Positions 13,073-44,243 of a stretch of 64,000 nt of DNA are shown piece by piece; the stretch's first letter is position 1, and each line of letters opens with the position of its first letter. The translations under genes were made by a program, and so were the position numbers. The notes below the pieces were generated by a model that did no database searches, was not told where the DNA came from, and worked only from the letters and a program-made list of their open reading frames with translations. The DNA comes from Candidatus Babeliales bacterium. GTDB taxonomy: Bacteria > Babelota > Babeliae > Babelales > RVW-14. The stretch is from contig JBAZSL010000002.1 of NCBI GenBank assembly GCA_041662445.1, forward strand, positions 35,423-99,422, given 5' to 3'.

Positions 13073-14466
13073 AAAATTTGTGTGTTTTCTGATACAAATG
13101 GGCTGTGAACCGCTGGTACGAAATGATCCTTTGTTGGTGATGCTGCATTCTTGCGTCCAACACAGAAGTAATTAACGCCGGCCTTTTTCATGAGGACTGG
13201 ATCAAAGCAATTTCTTCCATCAAAAACTGTTTTGTCGACAAGAGACAAAAAATCATGTGCATCACACGTGCTAAATTCTTTCCACTCAGTAAGGACAACC
13301 AGAAAATCTGTTTGTTGGAGAATTTCTTTCCATGTTGACGCAAAGGAGATTTTCTGGCCATATCGAGCTCCAATGTTATCCTGCGCTGCTGGATCGTAAG
13401 CAATGATGTGGCTGCCGCGTTGGATAAGCTCATCAATAAGATCAAGCGAAGGAGCATGGCGAATGTCGTCGGTATTGGGTTTAAAGGCGAGCCCCCAGAT
13501 TCCAACGGTCTTATGTGCGAGTGTTGGGCCGTAATGGGAACAAATGCGATTGATGAACCATTGCCGTTGATAGGCGTTGATATGATCAACTTCTTGTATG
13601 AGTGTCATAGGAAAAAGATTTTCAGTGCCCATATGAATGAGCGCTTTGACATCTTTAGGAAAGCAACTGCCGCCATAGCCAATGCCAGCATTGAGAAAGT
13701 GTTTCCCAATGCGTTGGTCGCCTGATATGCCACGTTTTATTTCTTCAATATCTGCCCCAACCTTATCTGCCAGTTGTGCAAGTTGATTCATGAAGCTTAT
13801 ACGCATTGCAAGCATCGTATTGGCTGCATATTTGGTTAGCTCCGCCGATTCAATACTCATCACAACAAATTGGTGTTCGTCAGTGATAAATGATTGATAG
13901 AGGTTGCGCAAGGTGGTGGCAGCCGCTTCGGTTTCGGTGCCAACAACGATGCGATCTGGGTGGTTAAAATCATTAACAGCATCGCCCTCTTTGAGAAACT
14001 CTGGATTAGAGGCGACATCAATGTTTAATACGAGATTGCGGAGGTGAAGCTCTCGCTCAATAATATTTTTTACGGTGCGTGCAGTGCCAACCGGTACGGT
14101 CGATTTATTAACGATGAGTGCTGGATGCGTAATGGTATGGCCCACCTCGTACGCAGCGTGTTCGACATAGGATAAGTCAGCTGCTCCATTGGAGAGTGAA
14201 GGAGTTCCAACGCAATTAAAAATAACCTCTGGATGCTGAGCCATTGCCTCTTGGATGCCTGTCGCAAATGTTATGGTTCCTTTGCTTAAGGCGTCCATAA
14301 CGATGGTATCGAGTCCTGGCTCAAAAAATGGAATAGTGCTGTGTATGAGTGCGTTGATTTTGTCCTGATTGTTGTCGATGATGATGACATTATGCCCTTT
14401 GTGGGCAAAACATGCACCGGTAACAAGTCCTACGTAACCAGCTCCAATGACTGCAAGCTTTGACAT
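13069..14466 (-). CDS. ugd: UDP-glucose 6-dehydrogenase
   Basis: The ATG at 14466 is preceded by GGAGAG. Rossmann motif VIGAGYVGLVTGACFA and catalytic region GYGGSCFPKDV. The upstream in-frame extension to 14565 lacks an SD and overlaps the preceding gene. Confidence 0.9.
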   Translation of the reverse strand: MSKLAVIGAGYVGLVTGACFAHKGHNVIIIDNNQDKINALIHSTIPFFEPGLDTIVMDALSKGTITFATGIQEAMAQHPEVIFNCVGTPSLSNGAADLSYVEHAAYEVGHTITHPALIVNKSTVPVGTARTVKNIIERELHLRNLVLNIDVASNPEFLKEGDAVNDFNHPDRIVVGTETEAAATTLRNLYQSFITDEHQFVVMSIESAELTKYAANTMLAMRISFMNQLAQLADKVGADIEEIKRGISGDQRIGKHFLNAGIGYGGSCFPKDVKALIHMGTENLFPMTLIQEVDHINAYQRQWFINRICSHYGPTLAHKTVGIWGLAFKPNTDDIRHAPSLDLIDELIQRGSHIIAYDPAAQDNIGARYGQKISFASTWKEILQQTDFLVVLTEWKEFSTCDAHDFLSLVDKTVFDGRNCFDPVLMKKAGVNYFCVGRKNAASPTKDHFVPAVHSPFVSENTQIL

Positions 14467-14488
14467 TGTGACTCTCCTTTTTTGTAAC

Positions 14489-15631
14489 TTACCTGCCGCT
14501 GATGTTCTGCCAGAATTCGTAGGTCTTATCAGCGATAGCTTCGTGTGAGTACTCCGTGTGGGCACGTAGGTGCCCGCGTTTTCCGAGCTCTTTTCTTAGT
14601 TCATCATCCTGCATTAAAGTCTGTAGTTTTGCAACCAAGTCAGACTCGTTACGTTGGGCAAAAATGAGCCCCGCATTTGCAACGACATGAGGAATCTCGC
14701 CGGCATTGCTTCCGATAACTGCCACACCCGACGCCATGGCTTCTATAAGGATATGGCCGAATTGCTCACGCCACTGTGGCGTGTCATATGAAGGAAGCAC
14801 CAAGATGTCTATTTTACGCAAATACTGGGCAACTGCCTCGTGCGGGACGGGGCTACAGAGTTCTATGCGATCGAGCATCTGCCGCGTGGCGACAAAACTC
14901 TGTAATCGATGGCTTGCTGGCCCCTTGCCGATAAAGGTGAGTTTCCATGCGGGAAAATCATGCGCCACCTTCATAAAGGCGCGAGCAAGATAAAAGATTC
15001 CCTTCTCTTCGGTGATGCGTCCTATGTAACCAATATATTTGTAAGAACGCGAAATTTTTTCTTCATCAGGCTTAAAAAGTTCACGATTGATGCCAAGCTG
15101 AGGCAAGACAAGAATGGGCTTGGTAAATCCCTTTTTACGCAGCAGTCCATCGGCGCCATTGTTTCCTGCGATTGCTCCGTCTGCGCGGCGCAAATTTATT
15201 TTTTCAAGCAGGGATAAATAGAGATGGCTTTTCAACGATAGTTTTGGCTTCCAATTGATCCAGGTGAAAAAAATACTGTGCGCTTTGATGCCCATAAGAC
15301 GGGTGAAAATATTAATCTGAAAATAGCAGAGCGCACCGGCTCCTTGTTCAACATGAACAATGTCAGGTTTAAAACTTCGGAGCACGTTATAGAGTGGTTG
15401 TGGTTTGTAGATATATACAAGTTCATTGCCGGCGCCAAAGGTGTCCAAAGCGATAAATGAACAATTTGGGAGAGGTGTTTCAGTTGTTGCTTGGTGTGAA
15501 AAAAGGCAGGACGGCCAGTGTCCCGGGTATGCCACCAGTAGGCTAACTGATGGGTGGCGACGAGCAAAAAATTTCCATTTATCGCGGTTGATAGGAGAAA
15601 TATAAGTATGGCTTACAACCAATACTTTCAT
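14489..15631 (-). CDS. glycosyltransferase family 4
   Basis: GT4 C-terminal signature ILVLPSY..EQFGHILIEAMASGVAVIGSNAGEIPHVV (E-x7-E). Confidence 0.8.
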   Translation of the reverse strand: MKVLVVSHTYISPINRDKWKFFARRHPSVSLLVAYPGHWPSCLFSHQATTETPLPNCSFIALDTFGAGNELVYIYKPQPLYNVLRSFKPDIVHVEQGAGALCYFQINIFTRLMGIKAHSIFFTWINWKPKLSLKSHLYLSLLEKINLRRADGAIAGNNGADGLLRKKGFTKPILVLPQLGINRELFKPDEEKISRSYKYIGYIGRITEEKGIFYLARAFMKVAHDFPAWKLTFIGKGPASHRLQSFVATRQMLDRIELCSPVPHEAVAQYLRKIDILVLPSYDTPQWREQFGHILIEAMASGVAVIGSNAGEIPHVVANAGLIFAQRNESDLVAKLQTLMQDDELRKELGKRGHLRAHTEYSHEAIADKTYEFWQNISGR

Positions 15632-16908
15632 ATAGCATCCTGATAAAGGGTGGAACGTGGTTTATGTGGCGTTGTCCCGCGGTGCTGATGATCACATTTT
15701 TCAAACCAAGATTTAAGCTCTGGGTAAACTGTGCTTAATCCATATTTAAAAAGCGTGAAGCTTTTGTTCGGCGAAAAATTTTTTTCAACAAATTCGCGTC
15801 CATTGCGTGAAAGCGTTTCTTGTAAAATTGGGTCGGTAAGTATTTTTTCAACGTTGGCGACCATTTCATTATCGTCATTTATTGGAACAAGATATCCGGT
15901 GATATTGTTAATGACATAATCGCTGGTGCCCCCGCAGTCGGTGGCAACAACTGGTGTTCCGTGAAGTAATGCTTCAAGGCCAACAATGCCAAGTCCTTCT
16001 TGATATGACGTGATGAGTAAAAGGCTCGCACGCCGGTACAGGGCGTAAAGATCCTCGGTTGCGATTTGTCCTGTAAAGATAGTATTGCGCAACGAGTCAT
16101 AGCGTTGAAAAGAGGCCATGATTTCTGGCGATGGTTTCATGCCGACAATGTAGAGTTTGATGGTCGGTATATGCCGATAAATTCTTTCAAAAACGCGTAA
16201 AAGCATAGGAAGATTTTTCCGTGGATCACTAAAGCGCCCAACGGCCATAATAATTTTTTCACCCGACTTTACGTACTGAGGTGTAATGCGGCTTCCATCA
16301 ATAGGGTAACTACAAACGACCATATTTTCGCGGGGATGTTTGATGATGTACTCAAACTTTGATTTGGCGTACGTGCTGAGAGCAAGAATAAAATTTGCTT
16401 TGGTTAAAATTTTCCGTTCGATGCGATTCATCCAAGGATGCGCAGCTGCGTTGATAAGAGCGCGTATCCCGCGTAATTGTTTGACTCTTTCTTGGCGATC
16501 TTCGTCATAAGGCGTGCTTATCCAGAGGACAAATTTTTTGTTCGTGGCGAGCAGCGAATGTGCTGCAATGCTGGTACCACTAACCACAAAAAAGTAGTCG
16601 TAATCTTTGAGCAGCTCTTGCCATGATTGCTGGGTAAAAATATAGTGCCCTGGCTCCCAAAACGACCATCGTGTACCTATTTCCACGCTATTCATGCCAA
16701 AGTGAGATAGAGGTTTTACCGCAGAAGTGAACTTGAAGGCACGCAATTTTGTAGCGACCTCGGGCTCAAATCCGAGAAAAAATACGCGTGGTTCAAAATA
16801 GTGTTCACAAAATTGGTAAGCGCTTTTAAGGCAAGCAAGTACGCCGCCATAATTGTACGTATTGCGCAGAGATAAAATTGCAATCTTGGGTTTTATTGGC
16901 GTGCGCAT
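15628..16908 (-). CDS. glycosyltransferase family 4
   Basis: LLLITSYQEGLGIVGLEALLHGTPVVATDCGGTSDYV (E-x7-E motif). 4-nt overlap with the downstream gene. Confidence 0.8.
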   Translation of the reverse strand: MRTPIKPKIAILSLRNTYNYGGVLACLKSAYQFCEHYFEPRVFFLGFEPEVATKLRAFKFTSAVKPLSHFGMNSVEIGTRWSFWEPGHYIFTQQSWQELLKDYDYFFVVSGTSIAAHSLLATNKKFVLWISTPYDEDRQERVKQLRGIRALINAAAHPWMNRIERKILTKANFILALSTYAKSKFEYIIKHPRENMVVCSYPIDGSRITPQYVKSGEKIIMAVGRFSDPRKNLPMLLRVFERIYRHIPTIKLYIVGMKPSPEIMASFQRYDSLRNTIFTGQIATEDLYALYRRASLLLITSYQEGLGIVGLEALLHGTPVVATDCGGTSDYVINNITGYLVPINDDNEMVANVEKILTDPILQETLSRNGREFVEKNFSPNKSFTLFKYGLSTVYPELKSWFEKCDHQHRGTTPHKPRSTLYQDAI

Positions 16909-17576
16909 GTTGTATCGGTCCTTTCACCATATTTATGTGCGACAAAGAAGAGGTCTGAAGATAAAATCTGTGCATTGAGTACATGTACTCTACGTAGTGC
17001 ACCAATAATTTTTTTTGCCACAGGACGTAGCCAGGGAATAAAAAACTCGGCAAAAACGCTTGGTGGGACTATGCCCTGGGCGCTGATATGATCAACGGAA
17101 AACGTCCCGCGTTCAAGTGCTATTCGTAAAGATTCTGGCGTGTAATATCTTTTGTGCGTAAGATCGGTTCGGTGATAAAAGGTCAGATTATAAGCGGGAA
17201 GAAATCCATCATTGTTATGCGGAACCGATCCGACCAGAACCCCGTTGGGTCTACAGATGCGATAAAGTTCATTGATAAGCGATGATTCAGCGGTTATGTG
17301 CTCGATAATATCAAATGCAAGGATGGTATCAAAGCAATTATCTTCAAATGGTAGTGGCTGTTCGAGGTTGATCCTCATAAAATCTGCTCCCTTAACTCCT
17401 GCTAGATCAAGCTGATCAATGGCAACAATGCGTAGATGCGGATTTTTTTCGGCCAGCCATTCGCTGTAATAGCCATATCCAGATCCGACATCAAGAATAT
17501 CAGAACCGGCTATATTTTTCTGGATCAAGCTCACTTTAATATCGGAGAGCTTGTGCTCGATGGGGCTGCGTTCCAT
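16893..17576 (-). CDS. class I SAM-dependent methyltransferase
   Basis: ILDVGSGYGYYS motif I, FDTILAFDIIEHI and RPNGVLVGSVP. The ATG at 17576 has AAGGA 7 nt upstream. The track start at 17609 has no SD. Confidence 0.75.
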   Translation of the reverse strand: MERSPIEHKLSDIKVSLIQKNIAGSDILDVGSGYGYYSEWLAEKNPHLRIVAIDQLDLAGVKGADFMRINLEQPLPFEDNCFDTILAFDIIEHITAESSLINELYRICRPNGVLVGSVPHNNDGFLPAYNLTFYHRTDLTHKRYYTPESLRIALERGTFSVDHISAQGIVPPSVFAEFFIPWLRPVAKKIIGALRRVHVLNAQILSSDLFFVAHKYGERTDTTCARQ

Positions 17577-18601
17577 GTTCCTATCCTTGTGCCCGAAAAA
17601 ACAGGACATGCGGTGAAATATTTTTGCAGTTGCCGAGAGAGCGTAAACTCTTGCGCACGCTGGTAACCCTGTTGTCTGATGTGTGCACGCCTTTCTTCAT
17701 GCCCTAGATACAAGGTAACCTTATTAACGAGTTCTTCAAGATTTCCAAAACAAGCAACGCTTTCTTCTTCTTTAAAGTACTCACAAGCTTGCTCCTGGGT
17801 TCGTTGCGTGAGTAGAAAAGTTGAACTTGCGGGTACTTCAAAAGTACGCATATTATGCGAGCCAACGTTCTGTATACGGATAAAATTAAGGACGATTTTT
17901 GATGAACGGAAAATCTTAATGAGGGTTTGATGATAAACGGCGGGACCGCGCACGCATTCCTTGAGATGTATATCAGTGCTCTGTTTTTCCCATTGATTAC
18001 CCCAGATTGCAAGCTTCATGTTTGGCAATGCGGCATGAAGAGCTGCAAGCCAGTATTCGCGTTCAGGCTCCCATGTGCCAACAAAACACACATCGGCGGT
18101 ATATTTTTTGTGTTCTTCTTCGGTGATGGTTATCGGCTGATTGAATATTGTCTCATCGTAGGCGAAGGGAAAATGGCATACGTGGCTGCAGCCTGCTGCA
18201 TGGAGGGGGGTAATAAGCATGTGAGACCAGGATAAAAAACAATCAAGTTCAGGGAGCCGCTCAAGAACGGTGGCCTTAGAGTTGTGGTTCCATAGCGTAA
18301 ATGGATTGTCGGTATAAAAATTTATTATTTTGCAGCGGATGTGGTGCTTGATAGTACGCAGTGTATGAGCGGAGATGTTTTCAGCTTTGATGAGAAAAAT
18401 GAGCTCGGGCCGAAATTTTTGAGCCGTATGTATAAACGCGTAATCATGGTATGCCGGTGGCGCGAACCGAATAAACCCTGTTGGTCGTGTGTTATATGGT
18501 ATAACGTTGTGCCCTTGCCCTATCAACGCGCGCAGAAACGATGTTGCGTAAGTGTATACCGATGGATCAGAGGCGAATGCTCCGGCGAGAAGTATTTTCA
18601 T
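17531..18601 (-). CDS. CgeB-like glycosyltransferase (Glyco_trans_1_2-type C-terminal domain)
   Basis: C-terminal pattern KIVLNF...NMRTFEVPASSTFLLTQ...EYFKEEESVACFGNLEELVNKVTLYLGHEERRAHIRQQGY resembles the CgeB/DUF3880 GT-B family. Confidence 0.55.
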   Translation of the reverse strand: MKILLAGAFASDPSVYTYATSFLRALIGQGHNVIPYNTRPTGFIRFAPPAYHDYAFIHTAQKFRPELIFLIKAENISAHTLRTIKHHIRCKIINFYTDNPFTLWNHNSKATVLERLPELDCFLSWSHMLITPLHAAGCSHVCHFPFAYDETIFNQPITITEEEHKKYTADVCFVGTWEPEREYWLAALHAALPNMKLAIWGNQWEKQSTDIHLKECVRGPAVYHQTLIKIFRSSKIVLNFIRIQNVGSHNMRTFEVPASSTFLLTQRTQEQACEYFKEEESVACFGNLEELVNKVTLYLGHEERRAHIRQQGYQRAQEFTLSRQLQKYFTACPVFSGTRIGTWNAAPSSTSSPILK

Positions 18602-19773
18602 GAAATCGCTTTCAGCACATCGGCGTAGGCCTGATATATCTTATTACCGTACGTGTTCCACGAAAATGATTGTATACGTGGTTGTCCTTGCATTCCCATT
18701 TCAACCGCCTCAGCCTGATGGCGATAACACCATTCAATTTTTTCAGCAAGGCCGGCAATGTCACCTGGTTGAATGAGAAAACCGTGAATATTATCAGTGA
18801 TAAGCTCTGGTCCTGCGCTGGCGGTGCTACAAATTACGGGCAGACCGCTTGCCATCGCTTCACCAATGACCATGCCAAATCCATCTTCAAGTGATGGCAA
18901 TACAAAAAGAGATGCCTGTTGGTAGAGCGTGCGCAATTTTTGGCGGTCAACCGGACCGGTAAAGATGACGTTGGCAGAAATACGAAGCCGTGGAGCAATT
19001 GAGGTAAAATCTTTTGTTAGTGCGCCAACAATAAGCAATTCACTTTCATGCTTAGGCACGTTGAGTTTATCCCACGCCTGAAGAAGATTCTGAATGCCCT
19101 TGCGCAAGGAAACGAGGCCGACAACAATGACACGAAATTTTTGTTTTTGCGGTGGAGTCATCATGTCGTGCGAAAAATACTTAGTATCAACACCACACGG
19201 CACCATGAGAACTTTTTGAGGCGATATGCCCTGATCAATAAAGCTTTGCCGTGCAAATGACGAAAGTGTCATGATGTAATCAGCCGTGTGATACTCAGTG
19301 CACATTTTTTCGATAGTCCGTTGATCAATCGGTGCATATGCAATGCCCCAACGACGATACTCCTCGTGCAAGATTCTTTGTTGCGCTGCTATATGACATG
19401 ATCCCGATTCGATAATGACTTTTGCTCCTGCTCTGCGTGCTGCCGGTATGGAATGTGCGGCATAATGTGCCCAGCCAATAAATAGATCAAAGGGCGCCAG
19501 AGCCTCGAGCCTTTTACTGACATGTTTATCAAAAAGATTGTCTTTAAAAACATTAAATCGTGATGTGTTAAAAAATCTACCAGCCTGTAGCTTTACAAAG
19601 CTGTCATTGAGCAGCTTGCTTATGTGCGCAACGTGGACAAACTGTTCGGGAATGTTTGTATCTTGTGCTGTGTAATCAAAGGTAAAAAATTGGCGCAAGC
19701 TGTGGCGTAAGGCTAATTGATGTGCTAGATGATGTGCATGAAATCGTCCGCCCGCAGAAACGACGATGTTCAT
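18598..19773 (-). CDS. glycosyltransferase family 4
   Basis: LFVLPSLEDGFGMVIGEAMASGLPVICSTASAGPELI (E-x7-E). 4-nt overlaps at both ends. Confidence 0.8.
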   Translation of the reverse strand: MNIVVSAGGRFHAHHLAHQLALRHSLRQFFTFDYTAQDTNIPEQFVHVAHISKLLNDSFVKLQAGRFFNTSRFNVFKDNLFDKHVSKRLEALAPFDLFIGWAHYAAHSIPAARRAGAKVIIESGSCHIAAQQRILHEEYRRWGIAYAPIDQRTIEKMCTEYHTADYIMTLSSFARQSFIDQGISPQKVLMVPCGVDTKYFSHDMMTPPQKQKFRVIVVGLVSLRKGIQNLLQAWDKLNVPKHESELLIVGALTKDFTSIAPRLRISANVIFTGPVDRQKLRTLYQQASLFVLPSLEDGFGMVIGEAMASGLPVICSTASAGPELITDNIHGFLIQPGDIAGLAEKIEWCYRHQAEAVEMGMQGQPRIQSFSWNTYGNKIYQAYADVLKAIS

Positions 19774-28662: not shown

Positions 28663-29826
28663 ATGAAGCGGGCGCTGATTACCGGTATTACCGGACAAGA
28701 CGGCTCGTATCTTGCGGAGTTTTTGATTGCTCAGGGATACTCGGTTCATGGTGTTATTCGGCGTGCATCGACGTTTAACACCCAGCGCATTGACCATTTG
28801 TACCGCGATCCGCACGATGGTAAATCAAGGCTGTTTCTTTATTATGGCGATATGACCGATACCGGCAGTATTACGAAATTTATTGATGGAATACAACCTG
28901 ATGAGGTGTACCATCTGGCCGCGCAAACGCATGTTAAAGTTTCGTTTCAGATGCCTGAATATACCGGTAATGTAACCGGTTTAGGGACGACAAGAATTCT
29001 TGAGGCTATCAGAGATACGCAACGGCCCATAAAATTTTATCAAGCGTCATCTTCCGAGATGTTTGGTGCCGCACCTGCGCCTCAAAATGAACAGACCACT
29101 TTCCAGCCGCGTAGCCCCTATGCAGCAGCAAAGTTATATGCCTATTGGATGACGGTTAATTACCGCGAAGCTTATGGCCTGTTTGCTTGCAACGGGATTT
29201 TGTTTAATCACGAAAGTCCACGGCGCGGAGAAACATTTGTAACGCGCAAGATTACGCGTGCTCTTGCTCAAATGCGACTGGGTAAACAAAAAAAATTATA
29301 TCTTGGCAATCTCGACACGAAACGTGATTGGGGTTTTGCCCCAGAATATGTTGAAGTGATGTGGCGTATGTTGCAGGTTGATAAACCTGATGATTATGTT
29401 ATTGGCACCGGGCAGAGCCAACCGGTACGTGCCTTTGTTGAAAAAGCCTTCACGTATGTTGGCATCACTTTAGATTGGGTTGGTACAGGAGTTAGTGAGC
29501 GTGCGTTGGTACGCTCTTGTACCGCTGAATGGAAGTCACTTTTCAAGCCTGGTGACTGTATTCTTGAAGTTGATTCGCATTATTTCCGTCCAACTGAGGT
29601 TGACCATTTGCAAGCTGATGCCAGCAAAGCGCGCACGCTTCTTGGTTGGCAGCCACGTATTACGCTGGATGAACTTGTGGCGATTATGATCGATTACGAT
29701 TTTAAATATGTAGGTCTTCCGATGCTTGGCGAGGGTTTTGCGACGTGCAAAAATAAAAATTTTTCTTACACAAATCACGATTTTACTTTGCAACAGCAAA
29801 CGCAGGATGTAGAGGGCTTGCCATGA
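28663..29826 (+). CDS. gmd: GDP-mannose 4,6-dehydratase
   Basis: [22 protein letters not shown] and [16 protein letters not shown] lies 8 nt upstream of the ATG at 28663. The in-frame ATG at 28657 is too close to the SD. Confidence 0.9.
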
Positions 29827-30917
29827 TGACCACGTCTTCAAAAATTTACGTTGCGGGCCATCAGGGACTGGTTGGATCTGCCTTGGTCCGTACATTGAGC
29901 AGTAACGGTTATAACAATCTTGTTGTTCGCTCATTTCACGAATTAGACTTGCGTAACCAGCAGCAGGTAACAAAATTTTTTGATGAGCAGCGTCCGGAAT
30001 ATGTTTTTTTAGCAGCGGCAAAAGTTGGTGGCATTGGTGCCAACTCAACGTATAAAGCTGAATTTATTTACGACAATATGATGATTGCCGCACATGTAAT
30101 TCATGCATCATATTGTTACGGCGTTAAAAAACTCATTAATTTTGGGTCCTCGTGTATTTACCCGCGACTCGCACCCCAGCCGCTTAAAGAGGAATATTTG
30201 CTGTCAGGCCCATTTGAACCGACCAATGAGCCATATGCCATTGCCAAAATTGCAGCGCTTAAACTATGCCGTTACTACAATGAGCAATACGGGACCAATT
30301 TTATTTCGCTTATGCCGACGAATTTGTATGGTCCTTATGACAACTTTAATCTTGAAACGGCGCATGTTCTTCCGGCGCTTATACGTAAATTTCATCTCGC
30401 TAAATTGCTGATGCAGGGCGATCATGATGCCGTGCGAGAAGATTTTAAACGCTATCCCGTTGGTTATGGTATAACCGCTGTTGATCTTTTGGATCCTGCC
30501 AGAATCACTTCTATTTTAGAACGTTGCGGTATTGCCGATGGAGCCGTAACGTTGTGGGGAAGCGGTACACCCTGCCGAGAATTTCTCCACGTTGATGACG
30601 TTGCACGTGCAGCAGTTATTCTAGCTGAGCACTATGATTATTGCGATGTTGGCGAATGCATTAATGTTGGGACTGGTACTGATTGTGCGATTTGCGAATT
30701 AGCCGATTTGATAAAACAAATTATTGGATTTAATGGGCGTATTGTATATGGCACGAAGGTGTTGGATGGTATGCCGCGCAAGTGCCTGAATATATCAAAA
30801 ATCGAGGCTCTGAATTGGAAGCCCTCAATTACTTTGGCAGATGGCCTCAAGAATGTTTATTCATGGTATGTGCATGCATGTCCAGATGAGGAGAGTTGTC
30901 ATCATGCTACGCTATAA
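29823..30917 (+). CDS. fcl: GDP-L-fucose synthase (GDP-4-keto-6-deoxymannose 3,5-epimerase/4-reductase)
   Basis: [26 protein letters not shown] and [12 protein letters not shown] overlap with gmd. Confidence 0.9.
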
Positions 30918-31941: not shown

Positions 31942-33099
31942 ATGTTCGGAGCAACAAAAAAATACTCTTACGGTAAGCAAACGATATCATGTAGCGATAT
32001 GTGGGCGGTACTCAAAGCCCTACGGTCATCATGGTTGACGCAAGGTCCTAAGGTACGTGAATTTGAACAGGCTCTTTGCTCGTACACCGGAGCTCGTTAT
32101 TGTGTGGTGGTTGCCAATGCCACTGCGGCGCTTCATATCGCTCTATTGGCACTCAAGATTTCACCTCTTGATCGCGTCGTTACCTCTCCGATTACCTTTG
32201 TTGCTTCGGCCAACAGTATTTTACATGCAGGTGGCAATGTTCAGTTTGCTGACATTTGTCCCGAAACCGCATGCATAGATCCGTGTGAGATTGAAAAAAA
32301 TATTACGCAAGAAACCAAAGGAATAATGCCGGTCCATTTTGCTGGACAGTCGTGTGATATGGAGCGTATTGCTACCATTGCAAAATCTCGAAATTTATTT
32401 GTTGTCGAAGATGCCGCCCATGCCCTGGGCTCACATTATAAAGATGAAAAAGTTGGCTCCTGTCGTTATTCAGATGCGGCTATTTTTTCATTTCATCCCG
32501 TTAAAAATATTACGACAGGTGAAGGTGGCGCCATTACCACCAACCGAGAGGATCTATACGAAGTAATGTTGATGCTACGGACGCACGGCATTACGCGTGA
32601 TCCAGCACGTATGACGAAGAACGATGGAGCATGGTATTACGAACAACAGTTGCTCGGGTTTAATTATAGAATTACTGATATTCAGTGTGCGCTTGGTCTT
32701 TCGCAGCTCAAACGCCTTGATACCTTTGTGCAGCAACGAAGAGAATTGGTCGAAATGTATCGTGAAGAATTTAGGGATGATGCGCGCTTTTGCCTATTAC
32801 AGGAAAACAAATATTCACGAGCAGCATTCCATCTATTTCCACTGCTTATTGATTTTAACGAGATCAAAATAAATAAAAAAAATTTATGTGCTGCTTTGGC
32901 TCAAAAAGGAGTGCATACACAGGTGCACTATATTCCGGTTCATATACAGCCCTATTATAGAAATCTTGGGTTTGTTTCTGGGAGTTTTCCGCATGCAGAA
33001 TCGTATTATCAGCGAACACTCTCTCTTCCTCTCTATCCATTGCTAAGATCGCGTGATATCAAAAATATTGTAAAAATCATAAAAACAACAGCTGTGTAA
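31942..33099 (+). CDS. pseC: UDP-4-amino-4,6-dideoxy-N-acetyl-beta-L-altrosamine transaminase (DegT/DnrJ/EryC1 family)
   Basis: YGKQTIS N-terminus, ATAALHIAL and the PLP-lysine segment SFHPVKNITTGEGG. Its position is directly after pseB. Confidence 0.85.
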   Translation: MFGATKKYSYGKQTISCSDMWAVLKALRSSWLTQGPKVREFEQALCSYTGARYCVVVANATAALHIALLALKISPLDRVVTSPITFVASANSILHAGGNVQFADICPETACIDPCEIEKNITQETKGIMPVHFAGQSCDMERIATIAKSRNLFVVEDAAHALGSHYKDEKVGSCRYSDAAIFSFHPVKNITTGEGGAITTNREDLYEVMLMLRTHGITRDPARMTKNDGAWYYEQQLLGFNYRITDIQCALGLSQLKRLDTFVQQRRELVEMYREEFRDDARFCLLQENKYSRAAFHLFPLLIDFNEIKINKKNLCAALAQKGVHTQVHYIPVHIQPYYRNLGFVSGSFPHAESYYQRTLSLPLYPLLRSRDIKNIVKIIKTTAV

Positions 33100-33112: not shown

Positions 33113-34375
33113 ATGTTTAAAATTGGGTTGAAACTTTGGTCGACGAATGAGCAGTATGTGAATGAAGCGATTCGTCTCTGCGAACATGGTTTTTGCGATT
33201 ATATTGAGCTTTTTGCTGTGCCGAAATCATTCGAGCACCATGTTGGTCTATGGGCGGCGGTCAAGAAAAAAACCAATATTATGATGATAATTCACGCGGC
33301 GCATTTGCGTGAAGGGGTAAATCTGGCTCAATCACCGTGCTTTGAGAATAATATGGTTGTTGCACGAGAAGCGCTTGCCTTTGCTGATGAACTTGGGGCC
33401 TTGTCGGTCATTTTTCATCCCGGAACAAATGGACAATGGCAGGAAACCTGTCGACAAATTTCTCATATTCGTGATGCACGCATTGTTATCGAAAATAAAC
33501 CATATTTTGTTTCTCCTGAATTGATTTGTAATGGTGCAACCTATGAAGAGGTTAAATCAATTATTGACACAACGAGAGCTGGTTTTTGTTGTGACATAGG
33601 TCACGCCGTTTGTGCTGCAAATGCGTTGCACCAAGATCAACTTGAGTACGTGAAAAAATTTTTATCATTGCAACCACGCATGTTCCATCTTGCTGACGGG
33701 GATTGGTGCGGCGTGTATGATCAGCATGATCATCTGGGACATGGATTATTCAAATTAAACGAGCTGCTGCGTTTATTGCCTGAAGATAGCATGATTACCT
33801 TGGAAACAGCGCACGATTCCGATCATAGTTTAGTCGATTTTGAATCGGATGTTGCATATGTGCGCATGCTAGAAAAGCAGTGGCTCCGAGAACGTACGAA
33901 TGCCGATATTACTATTGATCCAGCAACGTTGGACGATCTGCATGATATTTTTAATCTTTCAAATGATGATGAAGTTAGAAGAAATTCGATCAATATTCAA
34001 AAAATTGCCTGGAATGACCATGTTGCATGGTTCAACGAACAAATAAGAAGCAAAGAGGATTATTTTTTTGTGGCACGCAACAAAAATAATGATTTTGTTG
34101 GACAGGTACGTTTTGACAAGGTGCGCACTGAAAATTGTCTTCGTATCAGTGTAAGTTTGTGCAAAGAGTTCCGCAATAAGGGTCTTGGTGCTCATCTTAT
34201 AGCATTGAGCTCTCAAAGAGTCCTTCACAATACACAGGCAACAAAAATATGTGCTTATATCAAGCCTGAAAACGGAGCATCCATAAAAGCTTTTTCTAAG
34301 GCTGGTTATGTTGCCGTTGGTAGTGTAAAAGTTGATGGAGTTGAATTGTCGGTGTTTGAATGTACATTGCGATAA
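33113..34375 (+). CDS. fusion: xylose-isomerase-like TIM-barrel (AP_endonuc_2) domain + PseH-like GNAT N-acetyltransferase domain
   Basis: The N-terminal ~255 aa show the TIM-barrel pattern (IFHPG, VIENKP, CCDIGHA, HLADGD, ITLET). The C-terminal ~150 aa are GNAT-like (FVARNKNNDFVGQVRFD, RNKGLGAHL, ENGASIKAFSKAGY). The gene sits between pseC and pseI, where pseH and pseG are expected. Confidence 0.6.
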   Translation: MFKIGLKLWSTNEQYVNEAIRLCEHGFCDYIELFAVPKSFEHHVGLWAAVKKKTNIMMIIHAAHLREGVNLAQSPCFENNMVVAREALAFADELGALSVIFHPGTNGQWQETCRQISHIRDARIVIENKPYFVSPELICNGATYEEVKSIIDTTRAGFCCDIGHAVCAANALHQDQLEYVKKFLSLQPRMFHLADGDWCGVYDQHDHLGHGLFKLNELLRLLPEDSMITLETAHDSDHSLVDFESDVAYVRMLEKQWLRERTNADITIDPATLDDLHDIFNLSNDDEVRRNSINIQKIAWNDHVAWFNEQIRSKEDYFFVARNKNNDFVGQVRFDKVRTENCLRISVSLCKEFRNKGLGAHLIALSSQRVLHNTQATKICAYIKPENGASIKAFSKAGYVAVGSVKVDGVELSVFECTLR

Positions 34376-34397
34376 TGCAGTAAAAAAGAGATGAGAA

Positions 34398-35450
34398 ATG
34401 AGAGATATTGTTATCGACAGCATAAAAATTGGAAGGCAGCACCCACCGTTTGTTGTCGCTGAAATGTCGGGCAATCATAATCAGTCGTTGCAGCGGGCAC
34501 TTCAACTTGTTGAGGCTGCCGCATATGCAGGCGTTAACGCCGTTAAGCTTCAAACATATACCGCAGATACCATAACGCTTGATGTACAAAGCGACGACTT
34601 TATGATCAATGATGCAAAAAGTCTTTGGCGCGGGGCAACGCTACATGCACTGTATCAACAATCCTATACTCCTTGGGCGTGGCACAAGCAAATTATGGAG
34701 AAATGTAAGCAACATGGATTGTTGTGTTTTAGCACACCCTTTGACGAGACAGCAGTCGATTTTTTGGAATCACTGAATGTCCCCTGTTACAAAATTGCTT
34801 CTTTTGAAGTTGTTCATTTACCTTTGATAAAAAAAGTTGCCTCGACCGGTAAACCATTGATTATTTCGACGGGGCTTGCAAATGTTGCCGAGCTCTATGA
34901 GGCGGTTGCGGTTGCGCATTCGGCAGGTTGTCGTGATATTGTTTTGCTTAAATGCACAAGTACGTATCCAGCCGAGCCGGTGGATTCAAATCTTATAACT
35001 ATTCCTCATATGCAGACTCTTTTCGATTGCCATGTTGGACTGTCAGATCACACGTTGGGCTTGGGTGTTAGTGTTGCCAGTATTGCATTAGGTGCAACTT
35101 TTATAGAAAAGCATTTTACGTTATGTAGGGCTGATGGTGGTGCTGATGCTGAATTTTCATTAGAACCTGAAGAAATGAAAAATTTAGTTATTGAAATAAG
35201 CCGCGCATGGCAGGCGCTTGGAAATGTTGCTTATGGACCAACGTTACATGAAAAAAAATCACTTCAATTTAGAAGATCCATTTATGCTTCACGGGATATT
35301 ATGGCTGGAGAAATTTTAAGTGCAGAGAATTTGAAGATCATTAGACCAGGATATGGACTAGCTCCTAAGTATTTGGAAGTGATTGTTGGGAGAAAAGCTT
35401 TACGTGATATTACTAAAGGAACGCCTGTAGATTGGCAAATGTTTGTATAA
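34398..35450 (+). CDS. pseI: pseudaminic acid synthase (NeuB family with C-terminal SAF domain)
   Basis: PFVVAEMSGNHNQSL, VKLQTYTADT, YKIASFE, LLKCTSTYPA and GLSDHTLG, with a C-terminal SAF-like region (IRPGYGL). Confidence 0.85.
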   Translation: MRDIVIDSIKIGRQHPPFVVAEMSGNHNQSLQRALQLVEAAAYAGVNAVKLQTYTADTITLDVQSDDFMINDAKSLWRGATLHALYQQSYTPWAWHKQIMEKCKQHGLLCFSTPFDETAVDFLESLNVPCYKIASFEVVHLPLIKKVASTGKPLIISTGLANVAELYEAVAVAHSAGCRDIVLLKCTSTYPAEPVDSNLITIPHMQTLFDCHVGLSDHTLGLGVSVASIALGATFIEKHFTLCRADGGADAEFSLEPEEMKNLVIEISRAWQALGNVAYGPTLHEKKSLQFRRSIYASRDIMAGEILSAENLKIIRPGYGLAPKYLEVIVGRKALRDITKGTPVDWQMFV

Positions 35451-42226: not shown

Positions 42227-43552
42227 ATGCGGGATCTTCAGATGTATCGACTTATGCAAAGGCTCTATCCAATCTGCAGAAGTATTACCGGTGACGGGGT
42301 TAGGCAAACGCTACGAATTATCCAGGAATATATTCCAATAAAAATTTCAGAAGTATCTACGGGAACGAATGTTTTTGATTGGACCGTCCCCAGAGAATGG
42401 AATATCAGAGATGCATATATAAAGAATTCGCGGGGAGAAAAAATTGTTGATTTTAAAGAATCCAACATTCACGTGCTCAATTACAGTATTCCTGTGAACA
42501 AAAGAATGGGACTTGAAGAACTGAAACAGCATCTTTTTTCGTTGCCAGAACACCCAGAATGGATTCCCTACTTAACGTCATATTATAAGGACAATTGGGG
42601 GTTTTGTTTAAGCCATAAGCAGTACGAATCACTTCAAGAAGATACTTATGAGGTGGTTATAGATTCAAGCCTAGAGAATGGATCGTTAACTTTTGCAGAG
42701 CTCGAAATACCAGGGCAATCTGAAAAAGAAATTTTGTTTACGTGCTATGTTTGTCATCCATCATTGTGTAATGACAATTTGAGCGGTGTTGTTTTATTGA
42801 CCTTCTTGGCGCAACATATGCTTGGCACAAGCCTGAAATATTCATATCGATTTTTATTTATTCCTGAAACCATTGGTGCTATTGCATGGTTAGCAATCAA
42901 CGAGCAGAAAGTACGTAATATCCAGTATGGACTTCTTGCAACTTGTGTAGGTGACGATGGATTTTCAACATACAAAAAAACGCGAAATGAAAATTCATTC
43001 ATCGATAGAGTTGTTGAAAAGGTTTTGATCGACAGTGGTGAACCTTATAAAATACTGCCCTATTCTCCTTACGGAAGCGATGAACGACAATTTAGTTCGC
43101 CAGGTTTTGCAATCCCGATGGGTTCTTTGATGCGAACGTCCTATGGCTGTTTCCCTGAATATCATACATCTGCAGACAATCTGGACTTTATAAAACCAAT
43201 GTCGTTAGAAAACTCATTAAATAAGTATCTGCGTACTATTTTTGTTGTAGAAAACAATAGGTTGCTTATCAGCACAAACCCAAAATGTGAGCCACAGCTC
43301 GGTAAAAGAGGTCTCTATAAAGACATTGGAAGCAGAAAAAAATCAGAATATTTGGAGGAAGCAATTTTTTGGCTTCTGAATTTGTGCGATGGATCGTGTT
43401 CACTTCTGGATATTGCGATTCGTTCTAAGTTGCCATTTGAAGATGTCAAAGAAGCGGCCATGCTTTTATGTGAGCATGGGTTACTTAATGAAATAACCGA
43501 GCAAGGTTATGCACATGAAATGTTTGGCAATCATTCCTGCACGTGGCGGTAG
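42227..43552 (+). CDS. DUF4910/M28 aminopeptidase-like domain protein of polysaccharide loci
   Basis: The N-terminal pattern LYPICRSITGDGVRQTL...VFDWTVPREWNI...HVLNYSIP...IPYLTSYYKDNWGFC is characteristic of the DUF2172/DUF4910 aminopeptidase-like family. There is a C-terminal wHTH-like tail. Confidence 0.65.
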   Translation: MRDLQMYRLMQRLYPICRSITGDGVRQTLRIIQEYIPIKISEVSTGTNVFDWTVPREWNIRDAYIKNSRGEKIVDFKESNIHVLNYSIPVNKRMGLEELKQHLFSLPEHPEWIPYLTSYYKDNWGFCLSHKQYESLQEDTYEVVIDSSLENGSLTFAELEIPGQSEKEILFTCYVCHPSLCNDNLSGVVLLTFLAQHMLGTSLKYSYRFLFIPETIGAIAWLAINEQKVRNIQYGLLATCVGDDGFSTYKKTRNENSFIDRVVEKVLIDSGEPYKILPYSPYGSDERQFSSPGFAIPMGSLMRTSYGCFPEYHTSADNLDFIKPMSLENSLNKYLRTIFVVENNRLLISTNPKCEPQLGKRGLYKDIGSRKKSEYLEEAIFWLLNLCDGSCSLLDIAIRSKLPFEDVKEAAMLLCEHGLLNEITEQGYAHEMFGNHSCTWR

Positions 43553-44243
43553 TTTAAGAATTCCGCGTAAGAATATAAAAGCATTTTGTGGCCAGCCAAT
43601 TATTGCCTATTCAATTGCAGCCGCGCTGAGATCTGGATGCTTTAGTGAAATTATGGTTTCAACTGAAGATGATGAGATAGCTGCGGTTGCTGCGCATTGT
43701 GGTGCAAAGATTCCCTTTAAGCGGTCGTTCAGGACCGCGGATAATTACGCAACACTTGTTGATGTCGTTGAAGAGGTGGTTAGAGACTATCGAAAGATTG
43801 ATATTTATTTTGATTATGTTTGTTGCATTTTAGCGACCGCGCCCTTTATTACGACCGGTATGGTGCAACAAAGTTATGAGATTTTAATTAATCGCTCAGC
43901 TGATGCGGTTATTTCGGTTGTCCGCTTCGACTATCCCATTCAACGAGGACTAAAGCTTGAGGATGGTTTTATAAGAATGATGTGGCCAGAAAATTATGAA
44001 AAACGGTCACAAGATTTGGAGTCGGTCTACCATGATGCCGGATTATTCTATTGGCTACGGACTGAAAGTCTGTTGAGGCAGAAGCGCTTTTATATGGAGA
44101 GGAGTATTCCCTTTGAATTATCACATGCCAATGTACACGATATAGATACGTTGGAAGATTGGCAAATTGCAGAATTCAAATATATGTTTTTTCACAACGC
44201 AAACAAACTGAAGCAGGCGAACGATGGCGCAGCTTATAAGTGA
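43515..44243 (+). CDS. pseF: pseudaminic acid cytidylyltransferase (CMP-Pse synthetase)
   Basis: AIIPARGGSLRIPRKNIK, VSTEDDEIA, ATAPF and HDAGLFYW match the PseF/NeuA-type cytidylyltransferase pattern. Confidence 0.85.
   Translation: MKCLAIIPARGGSLRIPRKNIKAFCGQPIIAYSIAAALRSGCFSEIMVSTEDDEIAAVAAHCGAKIPFKRSFRTADNYATLVDVVEEVVRDYRKIDIYFDYVCCILATAPFITTGMVQQSYEILINRSADAVISVVRFDYPIQRGLKLEDGFIRMMWPENYEKRSQDLESVYHDAGLFYWLRTESLLRQKRFYMERSIPFELSHANVHDIDTLEDWQIAEFKYMFFHNANKLKQANDGAAYK

Follow-up and report, generated by a model that had tools for sequence, protein, structure and literature searches.

A TIM-barrel::GNAT fusion in a pseudaminic acid gene cluster of a Candidatus Babeliales bacterium: a candidate non-orthologous replacement of PseG

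The 64,000-nucleotide stretch of Candidatus Babeliales DNA analysed here (hereafter the window; assembly GCA_041662445.1, contig JBAZSL010000002.1, positions 35,423 to 99,422 of the forward strand) carries a pseudaminic acid (Pse) gene cluster, in which one gene encodes a TIM-barrel domain fused to a GNAT-type acetyltransferase domain. Pseudaminic acid is a surface sugar found on flagellins, pili, capsules and lipopolysaccharide, and genome surveys call its pathway by six enzymes, i.e. PseB, C, H, G, I and F, of which PseG, the UDP-2,4-diacetamido-2,4,6-trideoxy-beta-L-altropyranose hydrolase, is a metal-independent enzyme of the GT-B fold that cleaves the C1-O bond. The barrel of the fusion is most likely a non-orthologous uridine diphosphate (UDP)-sugar hydrolase that replaces PseG, for which we infer both the substrate and the chemistry, metal-dependent phosphoester hydrolysis. 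Such a replacement had been suggested from the letters of the window alone, and it is strongly supported by conserved gene order, by a distribution complementary to that of PseG, and by a GNAT subtype common to both. Novelty here concerns the enzyme family at one step of an otherwise known pathway: a previously undescribed family of TIM barrels with a predicted three-metal site probably performs the PseG step by cleavage of a phosphorus ester. For the AP endonuclease 2 superfamily such a reaction would be new in type, and the case would be a non-homologous isofunctional displacement spread over more than 12 phyla, including the species Mucispirillum schaedleri.

The fusion gene, its parts and the recognised Pse genes are located in the window as follows.

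33113..34375, plus strand: TIM-barrel::GNAT fusion gene, 420 amino acids (aa), ATG start; identified as an open reading frame (ORF) with Pfam domains
33113..33898, plus strand: TIM-barrel domain (aa 1-262), candidate PseG-replacing UDP-sugar hydrolase; AP_endonuc_2, 41.7 bits
33293..33805, plus strand: span of the nine predicted metal ligands H61, H102, E127, D161, H164, H192, D203, H205 and E231
33908..34375, plus strand: GNAT domain (aa 266-420), PseH-type N-acetyltransferase; Acetyltransf_3, 53 bits
30841..31938, plus strand: pseB, UDP-GlcNAc 4,6-dehydratase (inverting); TIGR03589, 493 bits (cut-off 408)
31942..33099, plus strand: pseC, aminotransferase; TIGR03588, 506 bits (cut-off 423.5); ends 13 nt before the fusion
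34398..35450, plus strand: pseI, pseudaminic acid synthase; TIGR03586, 487 bits (cut-off 340); starts 22 nt after the fusion
43509..44243, plus strand: pseF, CMP-pseudaminic acid synthetase; TIGR03584, 286 bits (cut-off 205.7)

The gene order is PseB-PseC-fusion-PseI, with the fusion in the slot between the PseC/PseH and PseI steps, and the PseB, PseC, PseI and PseF proteins of the window all exceeded their equivalog cut-offs. The PseG model TIGR03590 (cut-off 153.55 bits) matched neither the fusion protein nor, in a six-frame search, any part of the source genome (1.43 Mb in 32 contigs, 94% complete), which confirms and extends the earlier remark that no PseG was recognisable in the window. 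The accompanying suggestion that pseG might lie elsewhere was not borne out, as none was found in the genome and a full-length PseG-like gene was absent from 46 of 50 other barrel-carrying genomes. The only PseH-like sequence of the genome was the GNAT domain of the fusion itself. A hydrolysing epimerase of NeuC/LegG type was considered as a substitute and rejected: the sole Epimerase_2 gene of the genome is the non-hydrolysing WecB (323 bits versus 80 for the NeuC model), and it adjoins WecC.

The fusion is one intact ORF that joins an AP_endonuc_2 barrel to a GNAT domain resembling PseH, as the sequence-only reading had it, and the motifs quoted there (IFHPG, IENKP, CCDIGHA and HLADGD) are present in the translation, within VIFHPG, IVIENKP, FCCDIGHA and FHLADGD. 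AP_endonuc_2 (PF01261) was matched at aa 29-238, above the Pfam gathering score of 31.1, and Acetyltransf_3 at aa 266-399 with a Pfam cut-off of 25.4. An AlphaFold2 model of the fusion, with 56 homologues as input, reached a mean predicted local distance difference test (pLDDT) value of 94 and placed the two domains at the boundaries listed above. Independent metagenomes yielded dozens of fused homologues, among them proteins of 420 aa with 93% identity and of 419 aa with 62%; across many independent assemblies, lengths ranged from 400 to 445 aa and identities from 93% down to about 35%. Because fused homologues recur in this manner, the fusion is genuine and not an assembly artefact, and the possibility that resequencing would resolve it into two genes can be set aside. 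Stand-alone orthologues of the barrel, of approximately 254 aa, were 45-54% identical to the barrel of the fusion. Two minus-strand ORFs antisense to the fusion and pseI genes, at 33959-34474 (171 aa) and 34296-34589 (97 aa), look like shadow frames.

None of the NCBIfam models covers the barrel family, and its relationships were approached by fold and by metal-site residues. The nearest solved structures were MJ1311 (3wqo, Z 25.1) and TTHB071 (3ayt/3ayv, Z 24.4) at 22% identity; the endonuclease IV structures 4hno and 3aam gave Z 21.9 and 21.7 with about 240 residues aligned, and ketose 3-epimerase structures gave Z 20-22, level with endonuclease IV. Sequence identity of the barrel was 18-22% to endonuclease IV and 11-15% to ketose epimerases. 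The nine residues listed as predicted ligands were invariant in all 56 barrel-family members compared. On the basis of hhalign profile alignment, eight of them pair with H109, E145, D179, H182, H216, D229, H231 and E261 of Escherichia coli Nfo, and H61 corresponds to position H69 of Nfo by way of the alignment of Thermus thermophilus endonuclease IV; the aligned positions were checked as H, D or E in the E. coli K-12 record (b2159). These nine Nfo positions we take to be the ligands of the trinuclear zinc site of the enzyme. Ketose epimerases use only four of the nine positions, and their single-metal E-D-H-E residues are present in the barrel as a subset of the conserved set. Because the full nine-residue set is kept, and not just the four-ligand epimerase site, the barrel appears to be endonuclease-IV-like rather than isomerase-like, with a probable three-metal site. 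The initial description of the domain as AP_endonuc_2/xylose-isomerase-like holds at the level of the Pfam clan, but as a specific label it does not, since the domain is apparently of the endonuclease IV kind.

The barrel is nevertheless not a housekeeping repair endonuclease IV, which was ruled out as a candidate: two true nfo genes lie outside the window (G000:C19:20498-21328 and G000:C24:4180-4965, with 299 and 167 bits), when the barrel reached only 20.1 bits on the nfo model TIGR00587 (17.9 in the genome search; cut-off 129.65). Against the CbiR model NF041277 it scored 19 bits (cut-off 105), and its genomic context is pseudaminic acid, not cobamide genes.

For the GNAT half, structure comparison returned a GNAT fold with Z 20-21, and the best NCBIfam model was PseH (TIGR03585) with 30.7 bits, under the cut-off of 93.1. 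This domain was 28% identical (E 1e-19) to a GNAT domain that is fused to true PseG in Deferribacterota, where PseG with a C-terminal GNAT was identified in frames of 512 and 555 aa with PseG scores of 194 and 298 bits. With 27.8 and 34.9 bits, the GNAT domains of these PseG::GNAT proteins likewise fell short of the PseH cut-off. Judged by these scores, the GNAT of the fusion appears to be a subtype outside the curated PseH equivalog, like those fused to true PseG. Because the GNAT of PseG::GNAT is homologous to that of the window, the same subtype seems to be joined at its N-terminus to PseG in some proteins and to the barrel in others.

The range of the family was determined by a profile search of 1.84 billion representative proteins, in which 418 clusters matched the barrel at E <= 1e-30. 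GTDB contigs, taken at one genome per species, contain 279 stretches with a gene for a barrel relative, and the locus counts refer to the best 80 of these 279, from genomes of more than 12 phyla. Hosts among the best 80 include Babeliales/Dependentiae, Planctomycetota, Spirochaetota, Brevinematales, Mucispirillum (including M. schaedleri), Saganbacteria/Margulisiibacteriota, Vulcanimicrobiota and Geobacteraceae, and further Synergistia, Nitrospirae, Elusimicrobia, Chlamydiales, Omnitrophota, Gastranaerophilales, Pelotomaculum and Treponema. The barrel adjoins PseB, PseC, PseI or PseF in 51 of the 80 loci, and no PseG match was found in any of them. Minimal clusters read, for example, PseB-PseC-TIM-PseI-PseF (L039), PseC-TIM-GNAT-PseI-PseF (L014) and PseC-TIM::GNAT-PseI-PseF (L083). 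The taxonomic survey, which had been thought worthwhile for the fusion, in this way placed the barrel family in Pse clusters of more than 12 phyla, both fused and stand-alone.

Other domain architectures of the barrel were GNAT::TIM, TIM::formyltransferase and a PseF-like cytidylyltransferase::TIM. In a tree of the barrel domain, fused and stand-alone forms were interspersed, with 13 changes in the best tree and at least 6 forced by well-supported branches; fusion and fission have therefore been recurrent, and a single ancient fusion is ruled out by the same interspersal. Formyltransferase partners recur, as Formyl_trans_N::GNAT in M. schaedleri (L103:11065-12159) and as TIM::Formyl_trans_N in protein P0172, which hints at N-formylated rather than N-acetylated variants of pseudaminic acid. 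Two barrel-family proteins of 405 aa each (P0141 and P0160) carry a DUF559 (Vsr-like endonuclease) domain, and in P0160 the barrel matches as two stretches flanking DUF559, as if the domain had been inserted into the barrel.

Occurrence of the barrel was complementary to that of PseG. A NeuB-family synthase was present in all 50 barrel-carrying genomes, and PseI above the strict cut-off in 30 of them. Among the same 50 genomes, PseG exceeded its cut-off in one, and a sub-threshold full-length PseG-like gene was found in three; in three of these four genomes (G050, G036 and G040) the PseG-like gene adjoins a second NeuB paralogue and not the barrel cluster. Within Dependentiae (201 genomes), true barrel orthologues were identified in 11 genomes at 350-401 bits, with the next best match at 57 bits, presumably a repair nfo. 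All 11 belong to the 16 NeuB-positive genomes, none of the other 185 genomes carries the barrel, and PseG was found in 0 of the 201. Within Deferribacterota, 49 of 68 genomes were PseI-positive (above cut-off), and these divide into 26 with PseG only, 18 with the barrel only, four with neither and one with both (G300), where PseG refers to a full-length PseG-like gene, which usually adjoins PseI. In the genome with both, PseI is present twice: one copy adjoins PseG::GNAT-PseF, and the second belongs to a PseF-TIM-PseI block, an arrangement suggestive of a single type of hydrolase for each copy of the pathway.

Clusters with neither gene were also observed. In a Dependentiae Pse cluster without PseG or barrel (L097, G235:C1:24000-43900, about 13349-19631) the order is PseB-PseC-methyltransferase-GNAT-(SDR epimerase::ATP-grasp, 646 aa)-HAD hydrolase (233 aa)-PseI, and the HAD hydrolase beside PseI may be a third solution to nucleotide removal. 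A DUF218 gene is directly beside NeuB/PseI in two nonulosonic acid (NulO) clusters of different phyla, both without PseG and barrel (L098:11209-11847 in G067 and L104:9042-9623 in G273); the gene in G273 has a formyltransferase and a transposase as further neighbours.

In the proposed mechanism, the C-terminal GNAT would N-acetylate the 4-amino group of UDP-4-amino-4,6-dideoxy-AltNAc (the PseH step), after which the barrel would strip the nucleotide from UDP-2,4-diacetamido-2,4,6-trideoxy-beta-L-altrose, so that two consecutive steps would be carried by one polypeptide. By analogy with endonuclease IV and CbiR, a metal-bridged hydroxide, i.e. metal-activated water, would attack phosphorus, which is expected because the site is of endonuclease IV type. 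The simplest products would be UDP and the free sugar, the alternative being uridine monophosphate (UMP) and sugar-1-phosphate followed by dephosphorylation, and the freed sugar would then be condensed with phosphoenolpyruvate by PseI.

The alternative products correspond to a variant of the preferred reading, in which the barrel is a nucleotide-sugar pyrophosphatase that converts UDP-sugar to UMP and sugar-1-phosphate, the sugar being freed by a separate phosphatase or by a monoesterase activity of the barrel itself. An endonuclease IV site handles phosphodiesters and 3'-phosphomonoesters, and the endonuclease-IV-type site of the barrel is consistent with such chemistry; the HAD hydrolase of L097 also shows that phosphatase-type solutions may exist in the Pse pathway. 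On the other hand, a phosphatase gene is absent from the minimal barrel clusters L014, L039 and L083, and a one-for-one swap with PseG is most simply explained by the same net reaction, which makes the pyrophosphatase unlikely.

Still less likely is an accessory sugar isomerase, epimerase or dehydratase, with UDP removed by an unrecognised enzyme or by a promiscuous housekeeping hydrolase. This would agree with a Pfam clan rich in ketose epimerases and isomerases, with Z-scores equal to those of endonuclease IV, with the four epimerase-type ligands contained in the nine conserved residues, and with the many tailoring genes downstream in the window. Five additional ligands specific to endonuclease IV are invariant as well, however, and retention of the complete metal site speaks against the added isomerisation step that had been offered together with the replacement. 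Moreover, the barrel is nearly exclusive with PseG, down to the one hydrolase type per PseI cluster in G300, the six-gene minimal clusters hold no other hydrolase candidate, and PseI above the strict cut-off in 30 of 50 barrel genomes argues for an unchanged hexose substrate. That a canonical pseG is hidden in the unassembled ca. 6% of the genome, the barrel being a repair endonuclease IV paralogue fused to GNAT by accident, is hardly credible: the genome is indeed a 32-contig draft, 94% complete, but two true nfo genes stand at 299 and 167 bits against the 18-20 bits of the barrel, the pairing of barrel and Pse genes without PseG recurs in dozens of genomes of many phyla, single-contig assemblies included, and fused homologues persist at identities as low as 35-40%.

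Several observations nevertheless weigh against a PseG-replacing hydrolase. The hydrolase role is a prediction for every member of the barrel family, and MJ1311 and TTHB071, the two closest structures, are structural-genomics proteins of no known function. With Z-scores tied, the fold alone does not appear to separate endonuclease IV from ketose 3-epimerase chemistry. Twenty of the 50 barrel-carrying genomes hold only a NeuB below the PseI cut-off, and in these the substrate may differ from the Pse precursor. Related genomes are not independent of each other, and the counts of barrel and PseG occurrence overstate the statistical weight and are to be read as a pattern rather than a statistic. 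PseG and barrel are both missing from a few PseI-positive genomes, and this points to further solutions or to assembly gaps. Finally, Spirochaetota and Mucispirillum carry the barrel gene outside the Pse cluster, and in locus L017 it is amid housekeeping genes. In M. schaedleri the stand-alone barrel gene directly follows pyrG and glmS (the whole stretch at L085:6502-10774), far from the Pse cluster (L103).

The M. schaedleri cluster itself reads PseB-PseC-cytidylyltransferase-formyltransferase::GNAT-PseI-Maf-like. No divergent PseG was found in it: between PseC and PseI there is no GT-B gene, only the cytidylyltransferase and the formyltransferase::GNAT. The two genes upstream of the M. schaedleri barrel, pyrG (cytidine triphosphate (CTP) synthase) and glmS, supply CTP and the precursor of UDP-GlcNAc.

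In comparison with known systems, the barrel takes the same pathway and cluster slot as PseG (Cj1312 / HP0326B / FlmD; TIGR03590), between PseC/PseH and PseI, has the same C-terminal PseH-type GNAT partner, and is in near mutual exclusion with it across genomes. PseG, in contrast, is a GT-B protein of two Rossmann-like domains, and the TIM barrel has neither sequence nor fold kinship with it; the bond expected to be cleaved is P-O by the barrel and C-O by PseG. With endonuclease IV (E. coli b2159, Thermotoga maritima 2x7v/4hno, T. thermophilus 3aam) the barrel has the TIM fold and the nine metal ligands in common, but it is ca. 30 residues shorter than Nfo, is located in sugar-biosynthesis operons, and has a nucleotide sugar, not DNA, as its predicted substrate. 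The GNAT of the fusion in turn shares with PseH (TIGR03585) the fold and the place beside the hydrolase step, yet is below the PseH cut-off. The second-half metal-ligand motifs of MJ1311 and TTHB071 align with the barrel, although these proteins are not orthologues (E about 1e-4).

CbiR of Akkermansia muciniphila, a cobamide-remodelling phosphodiesterase, cleaves the phosphoribosyl bond of its substrates by hydrolysis; it is metal-dependent, as ethylenediaminetetraacetic acid (EDTA) inhibits it (PMC7733943). As a member of the same superfamily it is a precedent for hydrolysis of a small-molecule phosphodiester (PMC7733943), and it appears to replace the unrelated CbiZ, as the barrel appears to replace PseG; clade, substrate and genomic context of the two are different. 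Full-text literature searches returned no paper linking the barrel family to pseudaminic acid and no function for MJ1311 or TTHB071. The sole match for PseG together with a TIM barrel, PMC7591256, was discarded, as the barrel meant there is that of NeuB.

Further genes of the window include a Pse-associated methylase and a WbuX-type amidotransferase downstream of the fusion. The longest pseB ORF shares 77 nt with the fcl ORF (29823-30917). Since the PseB model is matched only from residue 22 onwards, the true pseB start is probably near 30904, and its overlap with the fcl end would then be short.

Pathways that use the barrel are scored as incomplete by surveys for the six enzymes. A rule by which an endonuclease-IV-like barrel beside PseC/PseI is called as the hydrolase step would mend such calls for hundreds of lineages, most of them uncultured, and for Mucispirillum with the cultured gut bacterium M. 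schaedleri. If the barrel replaces PseG as proposed, a nucleotide-sugar substrate would be added to the endonuclease IV clade, and chemoenzymatic synthesis of pseudaminic acid would gain a second, mechanistically distinct catalyst. Organisms with the barrel in use would then be expected to be insensitive to inhibitors of PseG, and the fused forms would couple the PseH step physically to the PseG-equivalent one.

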